From Azolla caroliniana (lineage: Eukaryota > Plantae > Polypodiophyta), in the NCBI GenBank assembly GCA_043228905.1, contig JBHGNT010000001.1:14260001-14324000 (forward strand): a stretch of 64,000 bases of DNA. The letters are read 5' to 3'. Made by a program: the position numbers and the translations under genes. This document shows, one piece after another, positions 842 through 45,596 of this stretch (position 1 is the stretch's first letter; every line of letters begins with the position of its first letter). The notes under the pieces are model-generated. The model made no database searches and was not told the DNA's origin. It saw only the letters and a list, made by a program, of their open reading frames with translations.

Positions 842-1031
842 TGTCATGATATGGCAAGATTCAAACTCATGACCTTATGTTACATGGGACGAGCCCTTGC
901 CATTAGACTATATATTATCATACCGAGAATATTATTTTCATTTATCATTTCACTATAGAAAATTAATATATATTTCCAGATTTCTCTGGAACATTCTAGA
1001 AACTTGAGGAGTACTCTCGAAAATACTATAC
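842..1031 (+). mobile_element. Truncated 3' LTR of the chromovirus element, preceded by a polypurine tract (AAAAGGGGGATAG, ~829-841)
   Basis: PPT is directly followed by TGTCATG at 842. The sequence switches to transposase-like coding DNA at ~1033. Confidence 0.7.
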
Positions 1032-2422
1032 AAGGCACTTACCCATGAACAACTAAAGGCGGAAGGTGTGCAGATGAATTGTGCAACACATGTATTTGAA
1101 TTTTTAAGAGCTAATATGTCAACGAGTGCAAGTGGTGTTTATTCCTCGCAGATCTGAGATATCAAAAGTGAATTTTGGGAAGTGATAGGGAGAAGACCTG
1201 GGAGTGTCGAGGAATTCCCGAATTGGGATCCTTCCATGTTGTTCACGATTATTCTAGGTTGGATGGTCATAGTATTGCGGTTAGGGAATTAACTTGTTTT
1301 TGCTTCCATTGTGTGTAGGGAAATTGGAGGTATTGTTTAAACAAAACATATATTCAGAATTGGGAGTATCATACATTGAACGATAAGCAAGCAGTTGATG
1401 GAGAAATAGAAAAGAATGTTGACTTCACATATCAAGGACGTGGAGATACTCTGAGTGATGTCTTAGATGTTAGGGATAATTTTGCTATAAATGCACAAGA
1501 AGGCAATTCTATATCTTGAAATGCACGGTGAAAAGAGAGATGATGATAGAAAAGAGAGAGAAGGAAGATATAGAAACCCAAATCTACAAAGATATATTAA
1601 TAAGGAGTGATGATCATAGAAACAAGAGAAAGAAGATACATAAACTCAAGCCTACAAGGATGAATTGATCACTAGAAAAACACACTACATGAATAGGCAA
1701 GAAAAACACCACAAGAAAAAAGCTCTCCCTCCTGTACCTCACTCTTCTTGCTTTATATGAAGTTCTCCTCTAGTAGATAAGTTTCGCTTGCTTTCTTTTC
1801 CACGCTTTTTTTAGAGCTTTTCCATCTCCTATTCTTAGCTATGACACAACGATCTTCTAATCGTCATATCTCCCTCATCCATGCTCCAAATTTAGAGTTT
1901 TAAAAAGCTACGGATAGCTCTCGTCATAAGCTTTCTAACCCATATTTACATGTTTGGGTGTCAAACGAGAGAGTTATGAGCGTTTGTTTCTGACTGCTTT
2001 TTGGTGGTCAGCTTTTTCCTTCTTTTACTTTTCTCCATCTCTCTTGCTTTTAGTTTGACTTATACTTGAAACCTTAGCTCGTGTTCTTGGCCTTCGGGTG
2101 TGAATGCTCCATACCTTATATTTTTGTAGACTTCAATACCTTGAATTCTAAAAACACTTTCACATTTAGCCCACCCCCTTGCTTTTTGGTGAACCATTTA
2201 TGGTGAACCCTAAGCTACTAATAAAACTAAAGGTTCTCCTTCGCCTTATTCATGGCTATAGACAAAGAAGGAGAAAATAAATAGAAAAGAAACAAACTAT
2301 GTGAGTAAAACCCCCGCTAGTCAATAGGAAAAACCTCACACTTCTAAACACACACACATACACATTGACAATTGCCATCACCATCTTTCTCCTTGTCAAC
2401 ACAAAGAAAGAGGTTACAACAA

Positions 2423-2929
2423 TTAGTATATCTTCATCAACTTTCCAAACAGAAGTAGGTCTATGTGATACATAACTCTTGATAGAAGTAAGCATGTTAA
2501 CATATGAATAAAACTTTCAAGCGACCGAACCTTTTGTACAAATACCTTCAAAGCTTCGATACTTGTCAGAATTGTCATATTTTGAATTACGTCGATCTTT
2601 GCTTCATCAACATGACTTTCTTCTTGGCACACCACATTCTCCACATTACCTTGTTTTGTATGTATGACCATTTCATCTAGAATCTCATCTCGAAAAGAAA
2701 GCAAAAATAAATCTCGTTTGGTTGAATCATTCAAGGGTTGGAAGTTGACGTCTTTCTCCTTTGGAACAACTACAATAAGTGAGACAAACTTCAAATTCTC
2801 CAACTTGATGTGGTGCTTGATGCCTTCTACTCTTATCTGTGAATAGTCATTTATGAATAACTTTGTAAACTTAAAAAAGAGAGAAATAAACCTTAGATCC
2901 TCTTCTCCTTGGACATCGTTTGAAATCAT
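2423..2929 (-). pseudogene. Internally deleted gypsy reverse-transcriptase remnant
   Basis: KHHIKL..SLIVVVPK..VNFQPLNDSTKRDLFLLSFRDEILDE (RT N-terminus) is joined directly to VDEAKIDVIQ..LKVF (RT C-terminus). The catalytic core is missing. Confidence 0.75.
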
Positions 2930-2943
2930 CTTCTTTTTCCCCT

Positions 2944-5203: not shown

Positions 5204-8200
5204 TTATAACATCCCATTGCCAATGTCTTCAAATCGCTTGCTGGTCAGTGGAACTTCTCTACATATATGATCTGCATACCGAGCTCGGTATGGAGTCCAC
5301 AACCATGCAATTAGTTGGCAACTCAATGTTTTCACCAAGTAGTGTTCAGGCATTTCATCGGGTGGAATGAGACAGCTTCTGTGAATGTTGAAGTAATGCC
5401 AGAAATGTTCTAAATCCAAAAACGTATTGTCGACATTATAATCTGGCCAAGTGGCCCAAAAATCAGAAAGTCTTTTGAATCTTGCAACATCCTTATGCTC
5501 ACAATTCTGTCGTGTCCATTGACCCTTGAAATGTTGTCGCCACTTCGGGAAGAATCTTTCTACACACTTCCACACATCTGTGCATGGTTTTTCACTCCAA
5601 ATAAACAAATCAAAGTATTGCACAACCCACTATAGAAATTGATTTGTGTCCCTCCTTGGTGTCATATATCAAACACTTATCAAGACTTTATTAAGCTCCA
5701 AGATCAAGGCTCTTCTTTCGACTTCTAATGGTTTAGGTTTCCATTCCTGTAACTGAGCCTCTGTTACACCAATTACTGGTAGCACACGATCAATTACAAT
5801 CAACTCAAGTTTTGTCGGCATAATTGGTGTCCTTTTCCTCTTGAAACGCTTGGTCGACTGTGTTGGGCCTGGCTTCACATTCTGGTGCTCTTGTATTGTC
5901 GACTTAGTCATTAGCTTGGTGCATGTAGATACTAATCTGGTCAATATCAACCCACTGGTATCACATGCTACATCTACCTGCAAAATCAGATCATCTGTGC
6001 AACATGCTTGATCGACTTGCGTGACCAGATCAGTTCTGTCAGTTGCTACATCTACTTTCAAGATGTGGCCCTCTAAACATGTAGCAACATCAACTGTTTC
6101 CACACTGCCATCGGCCTTAGGAGCAATAGATTCAAACCTTTAGACTCTTCAACATCAGAAAACACCAACATATTCACACTCACAAAGTAACTAACAGTCT
6201 CACAAAACAACATAATGAACATGAAATATTTTCCATCATAGAAGAACATGAACATAATTATCTTGAAGAAACATCATAGAGTTCCATTACATAATGTGGA
6301 TCAAGCAACAACCAATCTCAGGTTTTACTTGTCCAAATAGATCATAGTAAAACTTCATAAACCCTAGGAAAATCACTAACAATCATATCCCACTAATAAG
6401 TATTTCGCTCCAAATCAAGAGCCCCTTGACCGAGTAATTGGTCTTGTCCCTGATTGTGGCTCCTTCTTCAGCCTTTTTCTAGCTAGTTGCCCATTTAGCC
6501 TTGCTTCTTTGACCCAATGCACAAGTGTGTCCTCCTCTGACAACCTTTCCATCACCTCAGCAACGGTTTGCACATCAACCACGTCTTGCGTTGGCTTTTC
6601 TAGTACAGTGGGATCTATTTGGACATTATCAGTAGTTGGGCTCGGTGGGGTGGAATCAAGGTTTTGGGATTTCAAGAAATGTTGCATCAAGTGTTCAAAA
6701 ACACTATTGTTGTGAACCTCAGATTCACATGTTGTTTCCAATATTTCATGGCTTTTCACATCGTTGCCTAATTCAATACCATCTTCCAAAAGAATAGGGT
6801 GGAGCTGATCTGAAGGATATGTGACAACACGACTCTTACTTTCAGCCACGTTGGGATCTATCTCCTCCTTGGTTGTAGCATCATCAACACCAGACACCTC
6901 ATGCGCCCTCCTTATTCGACACGATTCTACAACAACATGGTCGCTAATTAGCTACATCTAGCTAACTAGTTATTCTTCTAGACTATGACAGTAGCTAATT
7001 AGCTACTTCACTTAGGTATGGTACTAGCCAATTAGCTACCACTTAGCTAATTGGCTACTCCTTGTCACTATGGTAGCAACTAATTAGCTACTCTATAGTA
7101 GCTAATTAGCTAACTAGTAGCTAATTAACTACTCTATAGTAGCTAATTATTTAATTGGTAGCTAATTAGCTACTCAGCTAAAGTATGGTGGTAGCTAATT
7201 AGCTACTGTATTAAACTATGGTAGTAGCTAATTAGCTACCACTTAGCTAATTAGCTACTCAGCTAAAGTATGGTAGTAACTAATTAGCTACCACTTACCT
7301 AATTAGCTATTGTACTAAACTATGGTAGTAGCTAATTAGCTAAGTGGTAGCTAATTAGCTACTCAACTAAAGTATGGTAGTAGCTAATTAGCTATTGTAC
7401 TAAACTATGGTAGTAGTTAATTTGCTACCGCTTAGCTAATTAGCTACTATACTAAACTATGGTAGTAGCAAATTAGCTACCATTTAGCTAATTAGCTACT
7501 GTATTAAACTATGGTAGTAGCTAATTAGCTACCACTTAGGTAATTAGCTACTTAGCTAAACTATGGTAGTAGCTAATTAGCTACCACGTAGCGAATTAGC
7601 TACTATACTAAACTATGGTAGTAGCTAATTAACTACCACTTAGCTAATTAGTTACTCAACTAAACTGTGGTAGTAGCTAATTAGCTACTGTATTAAACTA
7701 TGGTAGTAGGTAATTAGCTACCACTTAGCTACTTAGTTACTCAACTAAACTATGGTAGTAGCTAATTAGCTACCACTTACCTAATTAGCTACTCAACAAA
7801 AGTATGGTAGTAGCCAAATAGCTACCACTTACCTAATTAACTACATGTTAGCTAATTAGCTACTACACTACAACCATAATAGCTACATAGTTTCCACACT
7901 TTATACGGCTTACCTAATTAGCAAGGATGTAACTAATTAGCTACAATATGGTCACAAGGAACAATTTTACCTATTAGTTTTCTCCACTCATCTGGGAGAG
8001 TTGTATTGCAATCCCCCAAACATAATGCAGCAATGCGACAGGCATATTGAAAACAAACGATATGGTATGTGTGCTGGCATGGTTCTAGGTGAACCAACAG
8101 AGTAGCAAATTTGTCGTCTATACGTAATTCGCAAGCGATGCAATGTGATTGAACATTCAATATATTGTTTCCTGGTTCTTCTTCATTTGGTAAGGGAGCA

Positions 8201-8875: not shown

Positions 8876-8962
8876 TTTCTATTGCAAGCTCCCCATCTTC
8901 TGACATCTTTCTATCGATGCCTCGCCATTAATTGTCCAAGCTACCCTATACATTTCGGATTG

Positions 8963-11172: not shown

Positions 11173-12239
11173 TGTCGTGACGTGGCTCACCTAGAAGGGT
11201 AGCATTGCGCAGACAAAAGATAACGTGCAAGTGAGGAAGGAATCGATGGGATTATGGACGGAAGAGACGAAAGAGTAGAGATAGAGTGAATAGAGATCAA
11301 TAAGATATGACAAGATAGGATTTTTAAGGAATATAAGATATGACAAGATAAGATATAAAATAATATTTGAGAAAATATATGAAATTTATAATCATTTTCA
11401 TGAAAGAGTTACAAAATGGTTGCAAGCGTCGTTGAACCTTCAATTCTTGTCTCGCAAGTAACCAACTTCCTCTTTCTTAATAGTACACCATAGTTTTCCC
11501 TTCAATCTCTCGACAAGTATAAGATTCGAACCACCGCCCTTCCGTTGTGAGTTGAGGACCACAACCACCAAGCTAGTTCTTCTCTTCTCTTAAGAATACT
11601 TTCTCTCCCTCTTTCTCTATTATAATATATCTTTCTCTAGATCCAATATAATCCTCTCAATCTTATTTCTTGGGTTCTTTTGTCTATACTTCCTTCTCCT
11701 TTTATAGGGAAGAGATGGTTCTACATGTGGGCCATGTGGCGCACATGCAGAGAGGCTCTTGCATGCGTGCTATATGGTGCACATGTAGCACGTTTGATGG
11801 TTTAAACCATATAACACTACTTCAAATGAAAACAAGACACATATTTATATACATAATAAGTACAGGCTAAATGGTAAGGTTTGAATGCCATAAGGTTGAG
11901 GTTGTTGGTTCAAGTCCTCTTTTGCCCATGTAATTTGCTATATGGTGTGCATGTATTATATTACATGGTTTAGACTATAAAATACTACTTCAAATCATAT
12001 ATTATTTTGTAAATTATTAGAATAGGCTAAATGGTAAACTTTGAGTGTCATAAGGTAGGGTTTATTAGTTCAAGTTCTCCCTTGTTCATGTAATATAATA
12101 GATATATATATTTTTGTCTCTACATATAATGTATAATATTATCATAGTATGTTATTAACATTATAAAGGTTTATTTTATTTTCATTACGTATTTATTTTA
12201 TTGTAGACTTTTAATGTGAAGCTTTCGTACTTCACGACA
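11173..12239 (-). repeat. 3' LTR of gypsy A (1067 bp)
   Basis: Termini TGTCGTGA / TCACGACA. Abuts the G-rich primer region and hairpin at 12240-12277. Confidence 0.85.
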
Positions 12240-19287: not shown

Positions 19288-19977
19288 TGTCGCGTGACGT
19301 GTGACACACGTGCCAAACGTCAGAATGTGCACGTCACAAGCGTGGACATGCACTGGGCCTCTATCCGCTAGTGGTTATGGATGATGGGCGGCTGAAGTGA
19401 CACACTAATGTGGTTAGAGTGAGAGAGAGAGAAACCAAAATTGAGGAAGTTTTTAAGATAGATAGATAGATAAACATATATCACCAATAAGATAACTAAG
19501 TTTTCTTATTATTAATTTTCGATTTGATACATAGACTGATTCATAGATTGTTTGATTCATCCATTGATTGATCCCCCCCCATTACACAAGCCTTACGAGG
19601 GTTTTTATAGGTTTATCTATCCTTCTAACATGCACAAAACCATGGGCTTGAACCCATGGTTTTCGGGCACACGGTTTTCCTTGTGGCATGCACAAAACCA
19701 TAGGCTAAAACCATGGTTTTGTGTACACGGTTTTGTAAGTTTGTTTCCTATGGAATACTAAATATGAGAAGGAAATATACAAAATCTAAAGCACTTAGTA
19801 GTAGCTTTAGTGGTAAGATAATTGCTTCCTATCTTAGAAGTGCAAGGTTCAAATGTTGCTTGCACCCTTCTATATGCACTTGAATGTCATCAGACCTTAG
19901 GCTAATTTTAATATTTATAATGGTGTGGAGCCACACTATTTCACAATTTCTCCCATTGGACACAAAACATCACGACA
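19288..19977. mobile_element. Solo LTR C (690 bp) inserted in integrase of B
   Basis: TGTCGCG..CACGACA termini. 4-bp TSD CCGA/TCGA. The host reading frame rejoins across it. Confidence 0.85.
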
Positions 19978-28200: not shown

Positions 28201-30762
28201 CATTAATATTACATGGACAAGAAATTCCTGGATGCGTAATCAACGACGGCTCAGGCGTTAATGTAATTAGCGCCAAAACTTGCGAGTAGTTTGGCATTTC
28301 AGAATGGGAGGCTTGCCCATTCTGGCTCTGAATGGCAGATACCCGCTCAGTACGACCATTGGGGTTAATTCGCAAAATAGGCATTATCGTGGGCGGTCAC
28401 CGCTTCGACATCTCGGCGGTCTTCCTCGCTTTGGATGCCCCAGGGGCATACCCAGTGCTTCTGGGCAGACCATGGCTTCGGGCAACAAATATCAAGCAAA
28501 GCTGGCAACACAAGTGTATCAGTTTCCGACACGGACGCACCAAGGTTTGCGTACCTACAGAAGGAAGCACGCCACAACCCAAGGGTATAACACCATTATA
28601 CGCAAAAGATATAAATATGCTGGTTGGGATGGAGGATGCAAAATTAGAGGCATACCTAGATGAGCACCCATGGATCATTCCGCTGTTCGAAATCGACGTC
28701 ATCGCAACCGCAGCTGGATATGCCACGGCCACTATGTTCCACGACGAGGCTTACGAACCAAACCCAGAGTCCATATTGGAACTCAGCAGAGCACGGGCGG
28801 CATTCAAAAGGGAAATGGAGATTTCACGACGAGTCATCGCTTCCGCCTTGGAAGAAGTAAATGTGGGTACGGAATCGGAGCCCCGTTTCCTCTCCATCGC
28901 AAAGGAATTAAGGCCGGACGAGCGAAACACGATGATCGCATTACTCACGGAATATAAGGATGTGTTCTCTTGGGATCACGAGTACATGAAGGGGTTAGAT
29001 CCCAAATTCTATCAGCATAAGATCAATTTAGCAACCGACGCGAAACCCGTCCAACAGAGCCGCTACCGCATGAACCCGAACCACGCGACCCGCGTGAAAG
29101 AAGAAATTGACAAGCTCCTGAAGGCGGGGTTCATACGATCAGTTAAACAAGCGACATAGTTAAGCCCAATAGTGGTCGTTCCAAAGAAAAACGACAAAAT
29201 ACGGTTATGCGTAGATTACCGAAAATTAAACGTCGTAACCATTACGGACGCATTTCCCTTACCCTTCACTGATAGCGTATTGGACGTCGTCGCAGGTCAT
29301 GAGATGTACAGTTTTTTAGATGGCTTCAGTAGCTATAACCAGGTACGCATGCATCCCGAGGACTAAGAAAAGACGGCATTTGTCACGGACTGGGGAGTAT
29401 ATGTGGCTGTCGTCATGATGTTCGGGCTAAAGACGGCGCCGGCAACATTTCAACAGACAATTACGGAGATCTTTGGGGAATACATTCCGACGTTCATGCA
29501 AGTTTTTTTAGATGACTTTGCGGTATATGGGAGAACAATAAACCATTTCACGCACTTACAACTGTGCCTAGAACGTTGTCGCACCGCACGCTTAAGCTTG
29601 AATCCCGCGAAATGTGTTTTCGGTGTGACCAATGGGACTCTCCTAGGCCATATAGTGAGTAAGGAGGGAATAGCGGTTGATCCGAACAAGATCTTCGTGA
29701 TTACGCAAGCCAAAACTCCGACAAACGCCAAATCGCTCAGCCAGTTTTTAGGACAAATACGGTGGCATAGTCGAATGATACGGTATTTGGCGGACTTCGC
29801 CACGCCGTTACATGCTGCTGTACATCGGACTCCTTTCCACTGGACTGCAACGGAGGATAAGGCCTATGAGGCATTTAAGATAATGCTCAGATAGGCTCCC
29901 GTCGTACAACCACCAGTTTGGGCGAAGCCATTCCACGTGTTCGTCGACGCCTCGGACATAGCAATAGGAAGTGCACTAATGCAGCTCACTGAACCAAACT
30001 GGTACCGGCTAGTATACAACGCTAGTTGTAAATTATCAACAACAGAGCGTTGTCGTAGTGTATTTCGTACACTACGTGAAAACCATAAAATAATATATCC
30101 GATTTTAGATACATATAAATAGATAAATAATATATCAAAAGAATTTATCACGTGCATAGGGCAAGATTCGAACCATGCACCTCCACGTAGATAAACCCCA
30201 ACTTTACCATTGTAATAACTTATCTTTAGTGTTAATAAATATAGATTTAATACGTATAAGACCTTTATTTACACATACCTTTATTAAAAGGTAAAAATCA
30301 TGTATTCTTTAGAGTGTGAATATTTTATTTACACGTGCCATTAAAAGTGACTCATGCACGTCTAGCGTGCATGAGCCCTATATTTAGGAAATGACAAAGC
30401 ATCACATGCACATTTAGTGTGCATGGACACTTTAGGTGAAAAAGCATGAAGCCATGCTTAGCCTCTTCCATCTTTATATAAGGAGGAGAGAAATATGTAT
30501 AAGGTTGTTGATTAATATAGAAGAATTGATCAATCTAATATATTCGTGGGATTCACGAATTTTGCCATCTAAATTACTCATATAATCTAAATATTGTTTT
30601 AAAATACACTAAACTCGTGGGATTCACAAGATTACTATCTTACTTCTCTTCCTATTATTCATAATTAGCCTTAAGTTGTATTCCTCTTCCTCCGAGTCCA
30701 AAACCTCAGCGGTTCCCACCCGACTCACGTGAACGATCCGGAGCCGAAGGGCTCGACACAGT

Positions 30763-30780
30763 TGGTGAACCCGACGTGAA
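30763..30780 (+). promoter_or_regulatory. Primer-binding site complementary to tRNA-Trp 3' end
   Basis: TGGTGAACCCGACGTGAA, 4 nt after the 5' LTR, is the reverse complement of the recalled plant tRNA-Trp end (..TTCACGTCGGGTTCACCA). Confidence 0.8.
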
Positions 30781-31204
30781 GGCGGGTGGTAAGGAGATGG
30801 AGAATCAACAAGAAGCGATGAATATGATGATGATGATGATTAAGCGGATGCAAGAAGAGCAACACACAATGTGACAAATGAAATCGGCAGTAGTGCGGCT
30901 TGTGCAAAGAAATGGGGAATTCGACGGAAAGGATGTGTCACGCTATCTACATGACTACAAGACGGAGATGATGCGATGTGGGATACCGGAAGGATTGCAA
31001 GTGATATCCTTCAGTCGGGTAGCCACGGATGAGTTACAAGAAAGAATCTTCAAGATACGGCAACAAAATCCAACATGGGAGTCCTTTGAAGAAGCTATAC
31101 GAGACGCATATGACTATCTAAGACCGAAGCAGACGAGGACATGGTCCACGAACGGCGGTCAACAGTGGGTGAGAAGCGGCCAATGACTTCCACTGAAGGA
31201 GAGC

Positions 31205-32650
31205 TTGATGCGGAAGGGTTTGGAGATGCATGAAAAGTCGCAAGTCGACATTGAAGGGGAGCTTAAAACCAAACCAAAGTCGAGGCCAACAAAGGACGAG
31301 GAGGAGGAAGATCGAGGACGAAAGGGTATCCCCACACCGGTTCCAGAAACTTTGGCGGTTGTGCCCGTGCACCAACGTGAGACCGGAGAGACGGGATGTG
31401 TCGGCGGAAAGGTGGAGGACCGGAAGGGCGACGAGGAAGACAAAGTAAATGAGCACGAACGAAGGGATTCCTTCACCATTGTTTCGGAGACTTCGGTAGT
31501 CGAGCCCGTGTGTCGACATAACACCGAAGATAAGGAAAGTGGCGGCAACGAAACGAAGGTCGAAGCCGATGCATACGAAGGAGAGATAGCCAAGGAGGTG
31601 GCTATGGGTGAAACAACGGAGGACGATAATACCGTGGATTCCTGTCCACTAATTCTAGAGACTTCGGCGGTTGTATTCGAGAACCAACGTGAGACCGGAG
31701 AGACAGGAGGTGGCGGCAAGAAAGGTAAAGTCGGAAGCCGGTTCAGATGGAAGGTGATCCGGACGGGATTCCGATCCGAAAGAAAGCCGAACCGGGTGAA
31801 AGGGGATTCAGCCGAAAGACGACCCGAAAGAAAGCCGAACCGGGTGAAAGAGGATTCGACCGAAAGACGACCCGAAAGAAAGCCGAACCGGGCGAATGAG
31901 GATTCAACCGAAAGTCGACCCAAAAGAAAGCCGAACCGAAAGGAAGAGAATTCGGTTGAAAGACGACACAAACGAAAGCCGAACCGGGCGAATGAGGATT
32001 CGGTCGAAAGACGACCCAAAAGAAAGCCGACCCGAAAAGGGGTCGACTCGGTCAAAACTGATCGACTGAGTCTGACTTGGCCGAACGCGAATATGGATGG
32101 AAGCCGACCTAGCCGAAAGCTGATCGGACGAGACCGATCCGGAAAGAAGCCAATCCGACTCAACCAGAGGTTGGACCGGTCGAGGCTGGTGAAAACGAGG
32201 AAAAGAAAGCCAACCGAAACCGAAACCGATAGATCGAAACCGGGCCGGAAGGAGACCGACTCAATCGAAACCGAACAACCGATTCCGATTCGGCCGAATA
32301 CGAATCCGATCGGAAGCCGATCAAACCGAAAGTCGATGAAGACAAGAAAGAGGCCAGTAAAAGACACTACCACGAATGACAAGGGCCAAGAATATGACGA
32401 GAGAGAACAAAGAATATGGTGGATCGGATGGCAACAATGGTTCGGGTGGAAAGAATGGGTCTACTCAAAATGGAGAGACAAAGTTGACATAGCGGGACAA
32501 ACGGAGGATGAAGGGGAGACAACGAGCATCGGCAACTTCGGCACATACCGGAGGATGTGCGGGTTCGGAGGGGGCGAGTGTCGTAGTGTATTTCGTACAC
32601 TACGTGAAAACCATAAAATAATATATCCGATTTTAGATACATATAAATAG
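31205..32650 (+). CDS. Low-complexity charged ORF (481 aa) with 16-aa tandem repeats, running into the 3' LTR
   Basis: About 5 copies of RKPNR..EDS.ERRP (48-bp unit, ~31777-32040). No recognisable domain. Confidence 0.35.
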   Translation: MMRKGLEMHEKSQVDIEGELKTKPKSRPTKDEEEEDRGRKGIPTPVPETLAVVPVHQRETGETGCVGGKVEDRKGDEEDKVNEHERRDSFTIVSETSVVEPVCRHNTEDKESGGNETKVEADAYEGEIAKEVAMGETTEDDNTVDSCPLILETSAVVFENQRETGETGGGGKKGKVGSRFRWKVIRTGFRSERKPNRVKGDSAERRPERKPNRVKEDSTERRPERKPNRANEDSTESRPKRKPNRKEENSVERRHKRKPNRANEDSVERRPKRKPTRKGVDSVKTDRLSLTWPNANMDGSRPSRKLIGRDRSGKKPIRLNQRLDRSRLVKTRKRKPTETETDRSKPGRKETDSIETEQPIPIRPNTNPIGSRSNRKSMKTRKRPVKDTTTNDKGQEYDEREQRIWWIGWQQWFGWKEWVYSKWRDKVDIAGQTEDEGETTSIGNFGTYRRMCGFGGGECRSVFRTLRENHKIIYPILDTYK

Positions 32651-35274
32651 ATAAATAATATATCAAAAGAATTTATCACATGCATAGGGCAAGATTCGAA
32701 CCATGCACCTCCACATAGATAAACCCCAACTTTACCATTGTAATAACTTATCTTTAGTGTTATAAATATAGATTTAATACATATAAGACCTTTATTTACA
32801 CATACCTTTATTAAAAGGTAAAAATCATGTATTCTTTAGAGTGTGAATATTTTATTTACACGTGCCATTAAAAGTGACTCATGCACGTCTAGCGTGCATG
32901 AGCCCTATATTTAGGAAATGACAAAGCATCACATGCACATTTAGTGTGCATGGACACTTTAGGTGAAAAAGCATGAAGCCATGCTTAGCCTCTTCCATCT
33001 TTATATAAGGAGGAGAGAAATATGTATAAGGTTGTTGATTAATATAGAAGAATTGATCAATCTAATATATTCGTGGGATTCACGAATTTTGCCATCTAAA
33101 TTACTCTTATAATCTAAATATTGTTTTAAAATACACTAAACTCGTGGGATTCACAAGATTACTATCTTACTTCTCTTCCTATTATTCATAACTAGCCTTA
33201 AGTTGTATTCCTCTTCCTCCTAGTCCAAAACCTCGGCGGTTCCCACCCGACTCACGTGAACGATCCGGAGCCGAAGGGCTCGACAACGTAACTATTCCAC
33301 AACGGAGTGGGAGGTGCTAGGGATGATCTATAGCATCAATAAATTCCGGCGTTATTTATTAGGAAGGAAATTCACGTTCCACGTGGATCATTCGGCGCTG
33401 CTGTATTTGGTGGAGAAACAAGCCCTGACGGGGAAATTGGCGTAGTGGATGCTGCTGCTCCAAGAATTCGATTTCATAATCCAGCATCGACCAGGGACAC
33501 AACATGTAGTGGCGGATTTTTTGAGCAAACTCGAGAATCGAGAAACAATATAGAAAGATGACGACGATTTTCCGGACGTCGATATCCTGCGGGTAGCAAC
33601 ACTAGCAGAAAGAACGGAATCGACCTTTCCGGACCGGTGGCTTATGCAAATGAAGTACTTTTTGAGTACAGGACTGCCTCCACCACAATTACGCACGGAC
33701 GAGAAGAAACGACTAGCCGTCCGAAGCCGTCACTTCTGCCTCGTCGAAGGCGTTTTATATCACAAAGGAAGTGACGGCATTTGGCGACGTGGGGTACGTC
33801 AAGATCAGAAGGAAGCAATTTTACGGGAGGCACACTGCGGCACGACAGGCGGCCATTACGCGGGCAATGTTACAGCCCGGAAAGTATGGCAAGCGGGCTT
33901 ATGGTGGCCAACAACGCAGAAGGACGCATTCGAGTATTGTAGAAAGTGGGATTTGTGTCAACAGATGGGCCAACTCGCGGAGGGCGCAAGGATGCCACAC
34001 CATCCCGTATTACCGCTAGACCCCTTCCAAAAGTGGGGATTGGATTTTTGTGGGCCCCTTCACACCAGCGGCAACCCATATGGGCAATAAATACATATTG
34101 GTAGCCACGGATTATTGCACCAAGTGGGTAGAAGCAAAGGCACTACGGGAAAATATGGCGGCCATCACAACCAGATTCCTTTACGAGCACATCTAGTGTT
34201 GGTTCGGCTGTCTGATTGAGCTCATCAGTGACCAGGGGAGTCATTTTCTCAATACGGGGGTTCGGGAACTAACACATCATTACGCCGTAGTCCATAAGAA
34301 GAGTACACCATATTATCCATAGGCGAATGGATTAGCAGAATCCACCAACAAGACGTTGCAGACCATTTTGAAGAAAATCGTCAATGAAAATAGAACAAAC
34401 TAGGATACTAAATTACAGAGTGCGTTATGGGTGTACAGAACCAGCTACAAAACAAGCATACAGTCAACACCGTTTCGACTAGCGTTTGGGCTGGAGGCTG
34501 TGATGCCGGTCGAATTTCAGGTACCCAGTTTGCGAATTTAGGTACGGAACCGACTATCAAAAGCCAAGTCGGAGGAGGTATGGCTCCACCAACTCCTCGA
34601 ACTCGGAGAAAAAGGCGTACATAGCATGGCTGTGTTGGAGCAGGAACAGCGACGACGTAAAGCGTTTGTGGATCGACATCGGAACGCAAAGGAAAAGGAG
34701 TTCGCCGTGGGTCGAGCGGTGCTAGTTTTCCAAACTCACATGGGCCATATGCCAGGGAAGTAACGATTCCGCTGGACCGGCCCATACTAGATAATTGGAG
34801 CGGAACAAGGCACGTTCCAACTAGGTACGCTGGTCGGGGAAGTAGTACGGCAAAAGGTGAATGGGTTTCGGCTCAAACCTTACCTGGGCCCTACGCCACC
34901 TAACCCATTCACCGCCGAATAGGACAGAGCCGAAGAACCCGCACCGTAAATGAGCGGCCCCACTTGCACCATAATGTAAAAATAGGTTGTAGATAACCGT
35001 TATGAAGAAAAAAAGAAAAAAGAAGAAGACAAGATAGCGACTATTAAAACGACTAAAGGCATGCACAAACTCCTAGTTCAAGAACACGCGGCACCACGAT
35101 GGCTCCCCTAAGCCACAAAAGGAAGGAAATAGAAGATTTTCTGCACAAAACAGAAACCCATCTTCTAGCTATCAGCGCTCCCATCGTTGCTCCCCCTCAC
35201 CTTCTCCTCCATCCTATCACAGAGCTTTAGCCCACCGCAACCACCAATCTCCTTCCCACGAACCTCCTCTGGCG

Positions 35275-38003
35275 ATGCCGATCTTCATCTCTACTGCCTT
35301 ATGCCGATGGCTCGTGGAGAAACGCTTGGATGGGTACATCCGGGTCACAGAAGAACCCCCACACCCGGATGCCATGGACATCGCCAGGAAGCTTAACATC
35401 GACACGGTCACCAACTCCTCCATCAGGAAGAAGTTGGACCTGTCATCGCTAGAAAAAGGCATTTCGAAATCCCTCCTACAGAGGCGCTGCAGCGATATTT
35501 CGGGCCATATTCCTCTACCGCCAAGGCCTATAGAACGAAGCCGATTCCAGATCCCTTCTTCCGTGAAGTTTCCAAGTTCCTGCTAGAAGTTGGTTGTGTA
35601 CATGTCAACGCATATGGGATGCCGAAGCAGAAGGCGGGCATCATTATCGATACCTTTGAAGGGCGTGCGGTTGATTGGGGGGTCATCACAGGGCCGACGT
35701 TAAGGGAAGGCCTGCACACGTATCAGGCAGGCAAAAAGCTCAGGCCGATCATACAACAACACCTTACGGTACTATTCCCACCCCCAGGCCTGCCGGCACC
35801 GCAACCCAGCCGACCCACGCAGGTTAACGGAGTTAGCAGCCCGAGAGTGGGAAGAGGAACCCCAACCCGCCCAGCCAGACCCGCGGACAACAAATACCGA
35901 CCAGCCGGACACACGGATAACACAGGAGGAACAACCGGCACATTCCGTAGAAGCAGCCCCAGAGCCAGACACCGAAACACAGCAGGATAGCCCCAGACCG
36001 AAACAACATAGATTGGACAGGAAAGATGGGCGGGGGTTGGTCAAAGACGTCCCCACGGCGACAGAGACACCGACCGAAGGTGATGGCTCCACAGCTACGG
36101 AACCCAATACGACCTTCGAAATCATTCAGGAATCACGGCCTATCATTACGACCCAGTCCCAACGAGGGAAAGCCGTATTGACGGCGGAAAGCGAGATTTT
36201 GGCATATCCGGATATCCCGGATACCGCCCAGGATTTCATCGCCCTCTTATAGTTCGGAACTTCTTTCGAGCTCATGGAATTCTTGGCAACACAATAGGTC
36301 AAAGCCTCCCAACGAATGGCCGAAGAGCATGCGGAACACCAGATGATCGAGCGCGCCCTAACACAAACGGCGGAGAGCGACGATGAGGACCGGTTAGCCA
36401 GGGTCGGTAGATAGAGGAACGTCGGGGTACGCCGAGTGGGGATGGAGATATCCCCATTAAACACGGCCCTAGTCGAAGTCGATAGGGAACAGGCAAAGGT
36501 CAACACGGGCACCAAGGAGATGGCCATTAAAAATAAGAATGTCTGGAAGAAGGTGAAACTGACCCAAGCCGAACTGGAAAAAGCTAACAAACACATCACG
36601 GAGTTGGAAGCTAATGCGACTACGGCGCAACACGCAGCTCCGCCACCAAGACACGCCATCGCCGCTTTAAAGGAAGAAATTGAGGCTCAGACCGCCATCA
36701 CCTCAAAAGCGAAAAGGGTCGTGCAACTAGCGGAATCAGAAATTGACCACCTTCGAGCTGAACTACGCCAATCCTCAGACAGAGAAAAGGAGATACGGGC
36801 TAAGGCCGGAAGGCAGTAAAAACCCTTGAAGAGAAACTCGCTACGGACGTAGCTGAACACATCCGGACAAAAGATGAAAACGCCCAATTACGGGAGGACG
36901 CGAAGAAATCGGAGGCGGCAATCGCGGGACTCCGGGCCTTATTAGAAAAACAGAAGGTATGGTTCAACGAGCAGCTGGTGGTCGAACAAGAAAAAAGGCA
37001 TCAGCTCGAAATCCGCCTAAACAATGAAATGGGGAAATTAGAAGAACAACATGCAAAGGAAGCCCAGCTGTGGGCAGGCCTAAAGGCCACGTATGAAGAA
37101 GCGACGACGATTAAACAACAAGAAATTGCAAACCTCCAGAAGTCGATGGAGGATGCACACAACCGTTGCCATGCCATCACAAATAACGTGCGTATCCTTC
37201 TCCAAACAAATCGGGAGAGGCTCACAACGCAATTGAAAACGGTGCTGGACAAATGATGGATGGCGTGGGCAACCCAAGGAGTGGAATTGCAAGCGTATCG
37301 TGTGGACTGGGAGAACCGGTGAAAAGACGGCCGAGGGTTCTATAAACTAAATGAGGAGAGCATTGCGGACCTAGCACAAGACTATCGTGCGCTAGCGAAC
37401 CAACACTCCGAAGAACTCGCGCAGCTCTTAGATGATTTTGGTGAAAGCCAGGAGGAGCTACTTCACTAGATCACACAAGCCGGTAACACCCGAACAAATG
37501 AGGAATCCAGCGTGACGCCAATTCCGGGCACGGCCGAAGAAAAGGAACCTCAGGCCTGATCACCAGAAATTACAATGACGGTGAATAGCGTGGACCGACG
37601 AGCGGAGTCCCCCACAGTACCAAACAGTGAAACCACTGCCCAAGAGGAGGTTCATCCGCACGAACCCACGCTATCATCGGACCACATGGAGAACGATGCA
37701 GGCTAGGCGGAATCGCCGCCCCACTCCCCGGTACGAACAAAGACGGCCGACACCACGGAGGAAGTAACGATTGAGACAGAACCGCGGCCGACTGCCAGCA
37801 CGACGATGGTGGAGCCCAACCCACTAGCTCAAGAAGAGCCCATCGTACCCGGACCGCCCACACACGACGACTGCGACACCGGGAGAAACCAATCTGACCA
37901 AACAGGAGAGCCACACCACGATGCACCTACGGGCCCTACGTCGCTTCCGGACGCGAACGCCGCAGCAGAGCCAAACATTTGGGCCATTTGGGAAGAGGAT
38001 TAA
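35275..38003 (+). pseudogene. Degenerate extra ORF between integrase and 3' LTR of element E (coiled-coil-rich)
   Basis: Consecutive sense ORF fragments 35275-35586, 35619-35990, 36013-36252, 36436-36819, 36978-37256 and 37806-38003 with heptad-like E/K/Q/A-rich stretches. Confidence 0.65.
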
Positions 38004-41000
38004 CGGGATGGGTCCGACGTGCCAGGGCACTGTCCCACAGGCGTGGTAGGTGTTGTCCGTCGGAATAGTAACCGACAGACAACAGCGTAGGAATAAGAAA
38101 TAATATAAGATCATAACGCATGTAACGGTTCACGCAGGAAGCGTGAACGGCTAGATAAACCCTGCGTATATAAAGGGCAGAAAACCTCTGATAGAGGATC
38201 GTGTAATTTGGGAATGTAAAGAAACGTCTCATAATAGAATTCTATCTTCTTTGATTTTCTATGTATAGCTACGGCTAATCCACTCTGTGTGTCTTGAATA
38301 CCTGAGCGTGTAAGAACGTAAGTGTAACCCTTGCTAAGGATTCGGTTGTAGTCGTCTCCCTTATACGTTGATAGGTTACAGGGAACATTCCCCTACGCAT
38401 TACGCTTAGACGCCTATTCATTGTTCCACACCCACTTGGAGGTCTAGGTCAAAGGACTGACCGCGGACCGTGTTCCTAATTGGCAACAAGAGGTGGACTA
38501 AAAAAGATTGTAGAAGAAGAAGATGCAAGGCATGTGGAAGCTATGCACTATGCCGCTTCGGCTGGGATACGAGTTGGAAAAGAAAATCTTAAAATGATCA
38601 AGCCAGGAGCTGGGTTTTGCCCAACGGTCTTCGAGTGCGAAGAAAAAGGCAAAATCAATTTGGAGAATCTAAACCTTGCTGACCGAAACGTGCGACGAGC
38701 TACCGGATGGTCAGATGCAATCGACGAAAACACAAGCTTTGCGGAGGTTGTGTGTGACACCTATGAAGCCCTTGTCGAAGAGAAGAGGCAAAGAACCGAT
38801 GAAGAAGATGGCACATCAAAGCGTCCTAACACGAGGAACGGAGGGAAAGAAGGGCCACCCCAACCTATCCCAAGAAAAAAGATTGGTGAAACAAACATGA
38901 AGCCCGGTGGATCGAGGCAACCTGCTCGGATGGGAGTCGAAGAATCAACAAAGAAAGGAAAAGAACGAGTGGCACAGACTTACAAGCTAAGGTCGAACAT
39001 AGAACAAACAACTAACTTGCGGAAGGTCCTTAAGGAGAAGGTTTTAGACAGTCATGTCAACCTTACCTTGAGAGAGCTACTTGGGATCGCGAAGAAGGAG
39101 TTCCATGATACTATCGTGGACCTTATTAAAAGGAAGCAACAACAATCTGATGAAGAGGAGGTGAAAACAAGTTCCATAACCATGGCAAGATCAGAAGAGG
39201 AGGAAGAAGAAGAAGTGGTGGCGGATAGCCATTACTCTCGGCCTCATTGGGCAAGAGCGACAACGGAGACGCCGATGAAGATTGGGGAGAAGAAAGAGAC
39301 CGTGGTCGCTTTGATTGACCATGGCTCAGAGATCAACCTCATGTCGACTGAGTTCTACAAGAAAGGAAGATGGCCGATTAATACAAACCATGGATGGAAG
39401 ATTCGAGCAGTGACGAAGGCCACAGAGGACTTGTATGGAGCTTGCCCCAATGTTAAAGTCACAATCGGGGATGTGGAGATTGATCAACACTTCTTCGTGC
39501 AAGACTCGGCTTCGCATCCTATCATCCTAGGACAACCGTATATAACATCGTCCCGGATGGAGACCAAGGTGTTCGATAATGGAGCAGCCTTCACGCGCAT
39601 CAAGAGTCTTGATAGTAAAAGATCTGTTCAATTCCTGACGGTGCGAGCTAATCATGAAAGGAACCGAGATAGCCTTGGAGGCGAATGCTCGTATTTTTAA
39701 ACTGGACTATTGAAGCATGGGGCACAAATAGTCCGAGCAATCATAAGTCCCCACAAGGAAGCAGAGTGCGTGGATTGCAAGGAGAAGCAACATGCGTCAC
39801 ACCTAGCAGCGCATGCAAACTAAGACTACTCAACAAGAAGGAAAAGTGTCAGATACAAGACTTCGAGGAGGTGCTGAAAGAAGAAAGCATAATCGAAGAA
39901 GAAGAATTCGTGTCATATATTCTGGAGGAAGCCTCATTTAACGACACCATCGGCGAAATCGAGGAAGTCATGGACTTGAGCTATCCTCACCCTCAACATG
40001 TGATTTCGGTTAACTCCGTCAACATGTATACTATCATCGATGAATATCATCAAGGCATCTTGATAGAGGAAGCCAAAGTCAACGCAAAATATAAAACCGT
40101 GGATAGGAAGATCAAGCTAGTTGCAGTTCCGCTACCGGAAGATAGCTGGCAAAAGATGAAGGAAGTTGCAAAAGATCCAAGCTTAAGGAACCCAAATACA
40201 ATTGGTCACGTCTTCACTGAAGAGACGAAGGGAAAGCTCCGAGTTGGAAGGGAGGATTTCCTCCTTCCTGAAGAGGAGCAAATGTTCCGCGAAATGCTTG
40301 AAAGACATGGGAAGGCTTTCTCATTTTTCCCACAAGAAATCGGATGTGTGAATCCAAGGATGATAGAACCAATGGTGATCTTCACAGTGCCGCATGTACC
40401 TTGGAATTTGAAACCGATACTGGTCCCGAGAGCACACCTACCAAAGCTGATCGAGCTCTTAAAGGAGAAGGTGAGGATGGGAATTTTGGAACCGTCAAAC
40501 GCTCCTTATTCTAATAGATGGTTCATGGTGCCAAAGAAGAATGGATCGTTGCGATTCATTCAAGATCTTCAACCTATCAACAAGGTGACAATTCGGAATG
40601 ATGGAATCGGTCCAAGTGTGGATGAATTTGTCGAGGCATTTGCGGGCCGGTCCATCTACTCCATTGGTGATCTCTACTCTGGCTACGATCAATTCCAGTT
40701 GGCGATCGACAGTCGTGACATTACAGCCATGAGAACTCCTATCGGGTTGGTGAGGATGTGTACCTTACCTCAAGGTGCGACGAACTCGGTGGCTCATATG
40801 GTGAATGCCATGAACAAGGTCTTGAAGGATTGCATCCCGGATATCACGATGCCATTCTTCAATGATATCCCGATAAAAGGATGTTCGGATGAAGAGAAGG
40901 ATGAATCAAAAGATAAGGATGGATGTAGAAAGTTTGTCGTGGATCATATGAAAGATTGGGAGAAGGTGCTCCAAAGGCTCGAAGATGCCAATTTGACATT

Positions 41001-43194: not shown

Positions 43195-44509
43195 TGTCGT
43201 GTGAATCTTCACACACTATGTAAAAAAATAATGAAATAATTATTATAGATTAGTTTAGTAGCTTACTATAGAAAGATGGATATACTCAAGAGCTTCAAAA
43301 CATATTTTACTATATACAAAATGGAGAAATACATATCAAGTTATGTGAGAATGAAGTTTGAGAAGATAGGGAAATTAGAACTATCCCACATAAATAGGAA
43401 ACTTAAGGCCCTGGCTATATAAGCACCTTGAGCTCCCTCATTTTCCATTTGTGCTAAGAGCACTTTGGCCACTTTGTCTTGATGGATGATGGTGGCCAAG
43501 TTCCCAAAAATCGGAAATCGGCTAGTAAGCAAATTCGGAAACTAGTCGGTATGCAAACTAGAAACTGGCCGGTATGTAAATCCAAAAACTGGCCGGTATG
43601 CAAATTCGAAAACCGGCCGGTAAGCAAATCCGAAAACTGACCGGTGTGCAAACCGGAAACCGGCCGATAAGCAAAACCGGAATCCGGAAATTGGTTGGTA
43701 TGCAAAACCAGAAACCGGTCGGTATGCAAAATCGGAAACCGGCCGGCCGGTAAGCAAAACTGGAACCGGAACCGGCCGTGAAGCAAAATGGAACCGGCTA
43801 CCAGACGAGGTTGGACGCGAACGAACGGAAGATTGGATCGTGCAACAAACTAAAGTAAAGTGAAGAGAACTAAAGTAAAGGCCATGTGAACTAAAGTTGG
43901 AGTGCATGCAAAAAATAAAGGTGATGTGGAAGGTGTGCAACAAAAAGGTGGAGATCATGCAACAAACTAAAGTAAAGTGAAGAAAACTAAAGTAAACGCC
44001 ATGTGGGATGCATGCAAGGGAAGGAGAGAAAACAGAAGAAGGAAGAATCCGTGAATCAAGGGGTCTAATCACTCATAATTCCTAATTTCCATGCGGGGGA
44101 AGGAAGTTATCTCTCAAGTAAACCATAATTTCCATACGGAAGCAATCTCTCTAAAAATCCTAAATTCCTTAGAAAATCCATCTTACTCATAACCCTAATT
44201 TTCCATACGGAAGTTATTCAACTCATAAAACCATAATCTCTTATCAGAGCCAATAACCCTAAATCTCTATGGAATCCATATCTTCGTTTCTTCTAATCTA
44301 TTATTCTAGTAATCTCCTTAAGATAAAACTTTTGTAATCCCAATCGTAGAATTGATTGTAATTTTTCTTTTCCTTTTATTAATGAAATTTGTGAATCTTT
44401 CTCATTTTGTATTAATTGTTTAATATAATCATACGAATCTGATATCTTCCGGTCGGAGGCCCCAGGGTCCTTCCTTAAGTTCACGTATCCTCGTCGTATT
44501 TTCACGACA
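43195..44509 (+). repeat. 3' LTR of element D (1315 bp) with an internal ~21-bp tandem array at ~43510-43800
   Basis: TGTCGTG..CACGACA termini. Repeated AAACCGGCCGGTA(T/A)GCAAA units. Confidence 0.85.
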
Positions 44510-45558
44510 CCGGTTTCACGCTTTCCATGCCGAATCTTTGGAGCACCTTTGTCACATATTTTTCTTGCAACACCCACAACAATTTCTTTGTTCGATCCCG
44601 AACAATATGCATCCCCAAGATTTGCTTTGCCAGACCCATATCCTTCATCAAGGACGATTTGCTCAAGGCCTTCTTCAGCACTCGGATTTTCGTATGCTCA
44701 AGATCACCTTGCAGGAATGTGTTTTTCACATCCATCTGATGTAGATGCCACCCCTTCGCCGCTGCCACCGCCAGTAAGACACAAACGGTAGTCATCTTCG
44801 TGATTGGTGCGAACGTCTCATCATAATCAATGTCGTGGTACTGCACATAGCCCTATTAACGAACCTGTCGGTGTTGTATTTAACCTTGTATACCCACCCG
44901 AAACCGATCGACTTCACTCCTTTCGGTACGTTGTCGACAAGCTTGTGGTTGTGTGTCGCAACCACCGGGTTCTGTGACTCGGGATGATCGGGGTGACAAG
45001 GCGTAATCGTAGATGGTACGATGACAAGAAGCCGAGAAGCTGAGATAAAAGCGACGTTGTCGCGAAAAGAGTTTTATTTGTAAAACAACCACTTACAATA
45101 TTTATTTGCCAAAAGTTACTTGGCAAGACTTGAACTCACAAACTCTATTTGAGATAGACCGCTTCAATCTCTTTGGTTTCTATTTATTTGTCTTTCTCTT
45201 TCACTTTATATATACTAAATTTATATTACAAAATTTGATTACCAAAAGAAGTTGGTCTAAGAGGATTCGAACTCATGACCTTTGGCTTGCAAAGAGATGT
45301 CTAAGATACACCACTTCAACTTTTCCTTTTCTTGTATTTGTTGTCTTTTCTTTAACTCTTGACTTGATTTATGCAGGCCACCATCTTCTTTGGCGAGCTC
45401 TGCATCCCACACCCATACGAGCTTCTTCACTTGCTTTTCCTTCCTCTTCTTCTCCTTCTTCCCTCCTTAGCCACCATGGGCGTGGCTTATATAGGGTGGT
45501 CAACCGCCCTACCACCTTCTTGACACCGTTGACAAATCGCCTCATGTAGGTGGTTGGT

Positions 45559-45596
<38 letters not shown>

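Follow-up and report, generated by a model that had tools for sequence, protein, structure and literature searches.

To our knowledge, promoters of small-RNA genes have been described in LTRs only where they serve to transcribe tiny non-coding elements. Cassandra TRIMs of vascular plants are non-autonomous and are transcribed from 5S-derived A and C boxes (PMC7215508; PMC10886601). Helenus TRIMs (TRIMp3; Kojima 2024) are non-coding, 311–1263 bp long, and carry a tRNA part proposed to act as promoter; their proposed origin is a SINE2 inserted into an LTR, the only plant case in the accessible text is Selaginella, and 'not a few LTRs' in Repbase are said there to hold part of a tRNA (PMC10886601). 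Boundary functions of TFIIIC sites are described for the IR B boxes of S. pombe and for the ETC sites and HMR tDNA barrier of S. cerevisiae, with B-box-only sites acting as barriers and insulators in yeasts (PMC3395662), and mouse B2 SINEs form boundaries as well (PMC8136502). Among Gypsy elements, Phygy shows an NCGN target bias and has no chromodomain, Tcn1 has a chromodomain and primes itself, and mosses host both (Neumann et al. 2019, PMC6317226). A term search of the main text of that paper found neither 'tRNA-like' nor 'polymerase III', and our literature searches, with very limited coverage of subscription papers and Repbase notes, turned up no account of modules like these in the LTRs of moss Gypsy elements.

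Here we analyzed a 64-kb stretch of Azolla caroliniana DNA (hereafter the window) in which tRNA-like A-box/B-box modules had been noticed in several LTRs. Going by the accessible parts of the papers above, these modules share with Helenus a tRNA-like sequence in LTRs with conserved boxes A and B and no functional tRNA, and with Cassandra the promoter boxes of a small-RNA gene fixed in both LTRs of a plant element. Unlike in Helenus, they occur in gag-pol elements of 5.6–7 kb and their derivatives. The hosts belong to two distant Gypsy clades, most modules lie antisense in U3 next to a TATA box, and some LTRs hold two or three. Unlike in Cassandra, the boxes are of tRNA type (A/B), and their orientation is incompatible with making genomic RNA. 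Neither family could take these elements in: for Helenus/TRIMp3 the boxes agree, but size, coding content and a transcribing position do not (element d is 3.2 kb long), and for Cassandra the Rfam scan gave no 5S match and the boxes are tRNA-type. What sets this case apart is that tRNA boxes occur in the dominant Gypsy families with coding capacity, oriented in a way that is not compatible with a promoter of element RNA.

Modules and host LTRs in the window

The host LTRs and their modules are as follows.

831–841, PPT of chromovirus (a), with an integrase/chromodomain remnant upstream
842–1035, + strand, 3' LTR of Tcn1-type chromovirus (a): U3 up to the TATA box, truncated just after it (~1035)
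857–910, − strand, antisense module of (a), A box to B box (T8–62), at LTR offset 16–69; 24.5 bits, G19–T54 distance 35 nt
11173–12239, − strand, LTR A, 3' LTR of a Phygy-type element; PPT from 12240, TATA box at ~11700–11707
11522–11575, − strand, sense module of A, ~130 nt downstream of the TATA box; 28.4 bits
11864–11917, + strand, antisense U3 module 2 of A; 28.7 bits
12023–12077, + strand, antisense U3 module 1 of A; 12.7 bits here, 17.4 in L182
19288–19977, − strand, solo LTR C, Phygy-type; 4-bp TSD with one mismatch, TATA box at ~19602–19610
19802–19856, + strand, antisense U3 module of C; 15.2 bits here, 20.0 in L186
30051–33285, + strand, non-autonomous Phygy-type element d; LTRs 30051–30758 and 32579–33285 (98.9% identical)
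30164–30217, − strand, antisense U3 module of the d 5' LTR, A box weakened; 18.5 bits
32692–32745, − strand, antisense U3 module of the d 3' LTR; 18.5 bits
43195–44509, + strand, Phygy-type 3' LTR without any module, sixth Gypsy LTR of the window, used as control
44932–45880, − strand, solo LTR e, Phygy-type; TSD ACGT/ATGT, TATA box at ~45487–45494
45126–45179, − strand, sense module 2 of e; 14-nt deletion in the window copy, spacing 39 nt in relatives
45263–45322, − strand, sense module 1 of e; 24.4 bits with widened spacing, spacing 40 nt

All of the motifs quoted in the preliminary description were located, with position and strand as quoted, and the module of element d does lie in both of its LTRs. 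The comparison with shuffled sequence proposed there was passed: a two-box matrix trained on nine nuclear tRNA genes of the same genome gave 10 window matches of at least 15 bits; 30 local shuffles averaged 0.83 (maximum 3), and the reversed window had 1. Seven of the 10 are modules named earlier; two further named modules score below 15 bits (12023–12077 at 12.7 and 45126–45179 at 13.0). Each of the five host sequences is a true LTR: its ends read TG..CA, and family copies show PPT/PBS and TSDs. They do represent five LTR families, but not five unrelated elements, as A, C, d and e all belong to one Phygy-type group (NCGN 4-bp target sites, RT-RH-INT order, no chromo match) and only (a) is a separate chromovirus. 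The latter shows the Tcn1 traits of a chromodomain-type integrase C terminus (read by eye), self-priming and a 5-bp TSD; its family copies extend to ~440 bp and include the self-priming site. Element d has a tRNA-Trp PBS, a PPT and a TATA box at ~30475, and its family includes gag-RT-RNaseH-integrase members.

Relative to the host element, the modules of (a), C and d and two of those in A are antisense in U3, whereas A 11522–11575 and both e modules are sense and downstream of the TATA box. In LTR A, module 2 is a tandem duplicate of module 1 (~168-nt unit, 73% identical), and the TATA box is bracketed by the sense module and the two U3 modules, all directed away from it. The same layout was seen in a family unrelated in sequence to LTR A (S13_92454). 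LTR e has no U3 module, and the A box of its sense modules is degenerate; in module 1 the variable-loop/B-box part is strong and the A part reaches 4.1 bits. The tRNA-like A-to-B spacing described earlier does not extend to the e modules (G19–T54 39–40 nt, versus 35–36 nt in tRNA); it holds for the genome matches below.

The modules are present across aligned copies of all five families (30 copies each), including 30/30 for both (a) and C; the B box of module 1 of A is deleted in one of 30. Sporadic SINE insertions were rejected as their source, the modules being family-fixed and having no TSD or tail of their own within the LTR. Also rejected was identity as tRNA genes or pseudogenes. ARAGORN and Rfam each called no tRNA in the window, ARAGORN called none in 27 LTR loci, and the best Rfam tRNA score, in one of nine loci, was 26.5 bits (threshold 29). 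None of eight folded modules formed a cloverleaf (z −1.8 to +0.7), while the host tRNA-Trp control did. Other Rfam matches in the window were sub-threshold and of hairpin or microsatellite type.

Distribution and conservation of the boxes

Genome-wide, a strict A-box/B-box pattern gave 2,877 matches, versus 0 when reversed. Spacing was 53–54 nt in 97 of the 100 matches listed (49–63 allowed), and the middles differ. Of 30 loci inspected, 28 are Phygy/Tcn1 LTRs with the module antisense. A module of at least 15 bits was found in 8/8 intact Phygy and 7/7 intact Tcn1 elements (15/15 together), versus 0/17 with PBS-Met (Copia-type) and 0/7 with a TGGC-PBS (0/24 together). Three S10 'LTR pairs' with modules were dropped as repeats of a tRNA-Glu array, and a search of viral contigs for the Phygy integrase found nothing. 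The modules mark two distant Gypsy groups, Phygy-type elements and Tcn1-type chromoviruses, gag-pol members included.

Module-bearing families have members of 5.6–7 kb with RT, RNase H and integrase. The modules sit at the outer edge of U3, some LTRs holding two or three, and every module family has a TATA box, 115–300 nt inward of the antisense U3 module. Because most modules are antisense in U3 and upstream of this Pol II TATA box, they point away from the start site of their element and cannot drive genomic RNA. In Tcn1, moreover, the PBS can pair, apart from one bulge, with LTR sequence ~35 nt downstream of the TATA box, and this self-primer marks the Pol II start. These features and the coding members do not fit the earlier idea of a Cassandra-like Pol III promoter of element RNA. 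Sense modules in the A, e and S13_92454 LTRs and the short non-autonomous members (d, C) speak for such a promoter, of the kind proposed for Helenus (TRIMp3), but for the modules as a group we consider it highly improbable.

Conservation was compared among nine Phygy-d subfamilies chosen by LTR terminus alone. The A box (0.86), positions 44–48 (0.92), the B box (0.88) and the TATA box (0.94) exceed the spacer (0.63) and other U3 sequence (0.64), and the same mask placed elsewhere equals the boxes in only 3 of 512 placements. Conservation in the 12 nt that follow the B box (0.94) matches that of the boxes; part of this conserved stretch could therefore reflect a different factor or a signal in the RNA. 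In eight young Tcn1 subfamilies, the B box is invariant in 11/11 columns and its CpG retained in 8/8, but the A box, at 0.79, does not exceed other U3 sequence (0.87), and the two-box mask is unexceptional (65 of 286 placements elsewhere reach it). The expectation that boxes are more conserved than neighboring LTR bases held for Phygy and failed for the Tcn1 A box.

A B box adjoining the Tcn1 PPT/LTR junction has 1,535 genome matches, versus 0 in the control. An integrase tree took in copies from this genome and from public metagenome records; in the latter, 5/5 relatives with at least 60% integrase identity have the module at the same position. L341 and L348 also carry it there, L348 in full. 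Two deeper copies from this genome, including L272, have the B box only, which would follow if the core function were binding to that box.

Not every lineage keeps the module intact, and active lineages are among those that lost boxes. One Phygy clade has no U3 module (4 of 10 integrase-anchored LTRs, including the control at 43195). In family d, 11 of 30 copies have a T at B-box position C56, a change with at least three origins, and C56T is common to both LTRs of some elements; family d has transposed with a broken B box. The window copy of (a) carries C56T as well. In yeast, this cytosine is reported, in the text accessible to us, as essential to TFIIIC binding. The module-free clade, C56T in d and the degenerate A box of e count against necessity of the module.

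These losses, with C56T repeatedly arising and inherited in d, would also fit hitchhiking relics of SINE heads, or sequence conserved as a Pol II-factor site or for its nearness to the LTR end instead of for TFIIIC. The Tcn1 module, within 70 nt of the LTR end, lies where sequence is conserved anyway. But the Phygy-d module lies 105–320 nt from the end, and there the inter-box spacer diverges as fast as background sequence, whereas the two boxes and their spacing persist; the same geometry recurs with unrelated middles in two distant clades. We therefore regard the relic or Pol II-site explanation as unlikely. The conservation pattern points to a DNA-binding role, and the B box of young copies (GGTTCRARTC) matches the B-box consensus of TFIIIC boundary elements.

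A SINE-like repeat and the origin of the modules

The window also holds an old copy of a dispersed SINE-like repeat.

60746–60943, + strand, old copy of the ~200-nt SINE-like repeat
60757–60811, + strand, its tRNA-like head
60885–60939, − strand, second tRNA-like module, facing the head

The repeat has 418 candidates genome-wide and is SINE-like in being dispersed, with a tRNA head at the 5' end and an A-rich or simple-repeat tail; its flanks are mostly (GA)n and the TSDs ambiguous. Its head is 0.83 identical to the U3 module in a different family of chromovirus LTRs, compared with 0.87 among SINE copies, and SINE–LTR identity falls to 0.31 in the sequence preceding the SINE 5' end. The modules were likely captured from tRNA-derived SINE heads, an exchange that could have run in either direction, and several independent captures may have occurred. 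When module spacers were compared with possible donor tRNAs, the sole notable match was that of family L210 with tRNA-Arg-TCT (z 4.5, the best of 418 comparisons, with others up to 3.9, against an incomplete set of 19 host tRNAs).

Candidate TFIIIC sites beside the LTR promoter

Since the modules are family-fixed, have no TSD or tail, beat shuffles and have conserved boxes in Phygy, the earlier proposal that LTRs keep tRNA-type TFIIIC sites fits the sequence, and of the roles offered for them, insulation appears the best fit by position. The explanation we prefer, at a little under even confidence, is that the modules are tRNA-type promoters in Phygy/Tcn1 LTRs, likely taken from SINEs and likely kept as a TFIIIC boundary or open-chromatin anchor. 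TFIIIC on the module would act next to the LTR Pol II promoter: a new insertion, often into repeat-dense silenced chromatin, would place such a site between flanking host DNA and its own enhancer and TATA box. LTRs of the A and S13_92454 types would have candidate sites on both sides of the TATA box. The benefit would be modest and replaceable, because some lineages lose the module. TFIIIC binding, and any boundary or promoter effect, is predicted here from sequence. C-to-T decay at CG/CHG sites, an indirect measure of low power, was no lower in the module–TATA stretch than elsewhere and so gave no sign of a methylation shelter, and literature searches found no plant TFIIIC boundary activity. 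In the accessible accounts, the described boundary sites likewise use a B box, with or without an A box, as a non-coding chromatin element (putative in our case); those sites are host loci or free SINEs and were assayed directly, whereas here the predicted site lies inside a retrotransposon promoter. The conserved bases 3' of the Phygy-d B box resemble the extended ETC B box, as described there, only loosely.

Compatible with this boundary explanation, the modules could function as Pol III promoters with antisense, outward-directed transcripts that matter, for example for copy-number control or a nucleosome-free LTR edge. Transcripts would start in the 3' LTR and cross the PPT and the end of integrase, or extend from the 5' LTR into flanking DNA. 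Most families keep an A box and exact tRNA spacing, needless for TFIIIC on a lone B box; AT-richness upstream of T8 resembles that in front of host tRNAs, but these LTRs are AT-rich in general; and one module is common to an amplified SINE-like head. On the other hand, there is no conserved T-run terminator (in 6/7 intact Tcn1 5'/3' contexts it is absent within 200 nt, or distant), and the A box is weak in e, d and the B-only copies. Such transcription seems to us a minority prospect.

In HIV-1, a tRNA-Lys3-like stretch at U3-R matches the primer tRNA. In yeast Ty3, as far as the accessible text goes, genomic-RNA U3 holds a sequence complementary to the primer tRNA, the 3' part of a bipartite primer-binding site, and our antisense modules lie exactly at the place of this second site (PMC5371799). 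A similar pairing site could aid end pairing and strand transfer, and several Phygy A boxes match the D loop of primer tRNA-Trp over 7–8 nt. Yet Phygy modules are not Trp-specific (duplex rank 2–18 of 19 host tRNAs, longest exact match 5–8 nt), sense copies cannot pair, and modules are present in Tcn1 elements, described as self-priming without a tRNA PBS (PMC6317226). With no specific primer-tRNA complementarity, a Ty3-type bipartite PBS was rejected, and a pairing role is very unlikely. We give hardly any credence to modules as landing pads that draw Ty3-like integrases of other elements or guide the cDNA ends of their own element toward Pol III sites: LTR (a) is interrupted after its TATA box and not immediately ahead of the A box, and within the tRNA-Glu array Tcn1 insertions are 140–650 nt away from tRNA genes, at no fixed distance.

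The exchange between a SINE-like family and an LTR is a traceable case, and even if neutral, the modules remain a cause of false positives in searches for tRNA-like and Pol III motifs. Two distant autonomous Gypsy clades may have repeatedly domesticated tRNA-SINE heads as portable TFIIIC boundaries beside, and at times on both sides of, the Pol II promoter, a cis-encoded anti-silencing device seeding thousands of heterochromatic TFIIIC sites; we hold this to be possible, with the balance somewhat against it. TFIIIC insulation has been shown in yeasts and suggested in mammals. If TFIIIC binds the modules, the chromatin boundary is part of these retrotransposons themselves, and TFIIIC sites in LTRs, numbering in the thousands, would be more common than those in tRNA genes.

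Modules in the window and across the genome

The window, from a 523-Mb plant assembly, is built of nested, stacked LTR retrotransposons, and its right end holds an AP2-domain gene. Judged by the kinds of element, described below, the plant is probably a moss. The preliminary description had quoted tRNA-type A-box and B-box motifs at tRNA-like spacing (modules) in five sets of LTRs, and all of these motifs were found.

842-1035: truncated chromovirus LTR (a)
11173-12239: LTR A
19288-19977: solo LTR C
30051-33285: non-autonomous element d, with two LTRs
44932-45880: solo LTR e

Neither ARAGORN nor Rfam called a tRNA in the window. For scoring, we built a two-box matrix from 9 nuclear tRNA genes found in the same genome (9 for the A part, 8 for the 3' part). 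At ≥15 bits it gave 10 matches in the window versus a mean of 0.83 (maximum 3) in 30 local shuffles; the reversed window gave 1. Seven of the 10 are named modules; the other three are a tRNA-like head at 60757, a B-like site within LTR C and a match at 27179. Two named modules fell below the threshold (12.7 and 13.0 bits).

Genome-wide, the pattern TRGYNNARTGGY..GGTTCRAATC had 2,877 exact matches versus 0 for the reversed control. Lengths of 49-63 nt were allowed, and 97 of the 100 matches listed measured 53-54 nt, the tRNA distance; their middles varied between families. Inspection of 30 loci identified 28 as Phygy- or Tcn1-type LTRs, judged by terminus, PBS/PPT or shared flanks, along with one tRNA-Leu gene and one locus without a class. 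A B box beside the Tcn1 PPT junction matched 1,535 times (control, 0).

Host families and conservation of the boxes

Genome searches returned 2,730 candidates for family a, 685 for A, 1,558 for C, 3,758 for d and 265 for e, and the best 30 of each were aligned. A, C, d and e share a tRNA-Trp primer site (the host tRNA-Trp was identified in the genome), 4-bp target sites with an NCGN bias, and no chromodomain; this target-site preference and chromodomain absence are given as Phygy features (PMC6317226). Some d members encode RT, RNase H and integrase. In family a the integrase has an end of the chromodomain type, target sites measure 5 bp, and the primer site is complementary to a stretch of the element's own LTR some 35 nt past the TATA box. 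By these features, on which the clade names rest, a is Tcn1-type and the other four are Phygy-type. Modules occur throughout the aligned copies except for single-copy deletions (for two A modules, among the copies listed). Sporadic SINE insertion is ruled out, since the modules are present across family copies and have no tail or TSD of their own in these alignments.

Searching by structure alone, in 1.06 Mb of contiguous DNA and in fetched elements, gave 45 LTR pairs, or 43 after removal of two duplicates. Modules of ≥15 bits were present in 8/8 Phygy, 7/7 Tcn1, 0/17 PBS-Met and 0/7 TGGC-PBS pairs; four pairs were unclassified. The Phygy count was not blind, as two pairs had been fetched because they belonged to the families and three came from regions picked around known d copies; minus those five, it is 3/3. 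Anchored on integrase, the count is more mixed, with modules in 6/10 Phygy 3' LTRs (3/7 minus three known d copies); three further integrase matches, outside the 10, had no LTR found. The four module-less Phygy LTRs, among them the one at window 43195-44509, group as a single clade in a quickly built tree. Of ten integrase-anchored Tcn1-like LTRs, eight had the full module and two the B box alone.

Several other features were seen. TGGC-primer Gypsy elements (window 25860-38488, S1 246393, S5 65814) lack a purine tract before the 3' LTR, and have no A/B module. In LTR C, a CCATGG-centred inverted repeat is duplicated upstream of TATA (19600-19700) and holds a strong lone sense B-box match (16.2 bits). 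The window also contains a tandem array of 52/33-nt units inside an element (6950-8000), a near-perfect GC-rich palindrome of ~170 nt (25050-25222), 16-nt tandem units within the long open frame of element d (31720-32080), 24-nt tandem units inside the module-less Phygy LTR (43510-43750) and, at the margin of the repeat block, an AP2-domain open frame (62072-63016, minus strand) beside a (GT)/(CA) microsatellite hairpin.

For conservation, nine Phygy-d subfamilies were chosen by LTR terminus alone, to avoid circularity. Mean pairwise identity was 0.86 for the A box, 0.92 for positions 44-48, 0.88 for the B box, and 0.94 each for the 12 nt after the B box, TATA and the ends, versus 0.63 for the spacer and 0.64 for other U3. 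A two-box mask placed elsewhere equalled the boxes in 3/512 placements; the subfamilies are akin, so neither this figure nor the identities are independent counts. Among the eight Tcn1 subfamilies compared, the B box was invariant, CpG included, whereas the A box (0.79) was less conserved than other U3 (0.87), and the mask was unremarkable (65/286 placements). The check proposed initially, whether the boxes are more conserved than neighbouring LTR bases, came out positive for Phygy-d and negative for the Tcn1 A box. In family d, the B-box cytosine C56 is T in 11 of 30 aligned copies; the change arose at least three times, and some elements have it in both LTRs. In yeast, TFIIIC is reported to need C56 for binding (PMC3395662); the inherited loss of this base counts against necessity of the module.

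Layout and possible function

In element orientation, the modules of a, C and d and two of A are antisense in U3, with a TATA box 115-300 nt inward. Downstream of TATA, in sense orientation, lie the A module at 11522-11575 and the two e modules; in e the A box is poor and the spacing is 39-40 nt. The layout of A, two antisense modules plus one sense, all directed away from TATA, recurs in a second family, S13_92454, where the modules score 31-40 bits and are unlike those of A in sequence. Another chromovirus LTR (L272) opens with a 16-base antisense B box, right at the integration end.

Pol III promoters were one of the roles suggested initially, but a Cassandra-like promoter of the element RNA does not fit: the modules cannot make genomic RNA, as most are on the wrong strand, a TATA box is present and coding members measure 5.6-7 kb. 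Covariance scoring and folding found no tRNA fold in the modules. A second primer site of the Ty3 type is disfavored, because Phygy modules show no particular match to the primer tRNA (tRNA-Trp ranks 2-18 of 19 host tRNAs in module pairing) and self-priming elements carry the module too.

Judged by sequence, the bases kept are those that TFIIIC would read on DNA, and the module sits where the host flank meets the promoter. TFIIIC-bound B-box sites act as barriers and insulators in yeasts (PMC3395662), and mouse B2 SINEs mark chromatin boundaries, where a role of TFIIIC has been suggested (PMC8136502). On the strength of the retained bases, their position and these precedents, we tentatively favor the module as a candidate site at which TFIIIC would form a boundary or open-chromatin anchor between host flank and LTR promoter. 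One indirect C-to-T decay test, of low power, revealed no methylation shelter in the module-TATA stretch. Outward Pol III transcription from the modules would fit the retained A box and spacing, but no terminator is conserved, and we consider it unlikely. We also doubt that the modules are hitchhikers or are kept for another factor.

Origin, relatives and precedents

The head at 60757 is part of a dispersed ~200-nt repeat (window 60746-60943, plus strand; L413-L420 elsewhere; 418 genome candidates). Besides its tRNA-like head, this repeat has an A/(GA)n end and, facing the head, a second tRNA-like module. This convergent double head is unusual, and insertions of the SINE-like repeat often lie in (GA)n. 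The repeat's head also occurs, antisense, at the U3 end of an LTR family (1,642 candidates) whose integrase is closest to that of locus L348. Identity between LTR module and repeat head is 0.83, compared with 0.87 among repeat copies; outside the repeat, upstream of its 5' end, it drops to 0.31. This is the kind of SINE-LTR exchange proposed for Helenus (PMC10886601), and here it may have run in either direction. Comparison with host tRNAs found no clear donor for the other modules, from which we infer that several captures probably occurred.

Among tRNA genes themselves, about 64 tRNA-Glu genes and many degenerate copies occupy 200 kb of contig C10 (12.40-12.60 Mb; L291-L310). Single-isotype arrays exist for Lys(TTT) with Asn(GTT), Ile(TAT) and Arg(TCT) (L151/L158/L159, L168 and L169/L170), and tRNA-Trp clusters lie on contigs C5, C8 and C16.

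Searching with a Tcn1 integrase alignment yielded 80 metagenome loci, of which 62 extended far enough downstream. An antisense module at the LTR start was found in 5/5 loci with ≥60% integrase identity, 1/19 at 50-60% and 0/38 below. Three of these loci (L331-L333) may be close kin of this genome's families. In the integrase tree, nine module-positive rows plus L344, which has a weak module, form one well-supported clade. Its sister group is mixed, with full modules in L341 and L348, the B box alone in L272, and no module in L340 and six further rows.

Part of a tRNA is present in quite a number of Repbase LTRs (Kojima, PMC10886601); that paper's supplement, as far as searched, lists no moss. 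The openly available literature searched contained no earlier report of such modules in moss Gypsy LTRs. Cassandra and Helenus are precedents for small-RNA promoters in LTRs, yet the modules described here belong to neither, by size, coding capacity and orientation. The modules themselves are real, and TFIIIC binding is their candidate function.
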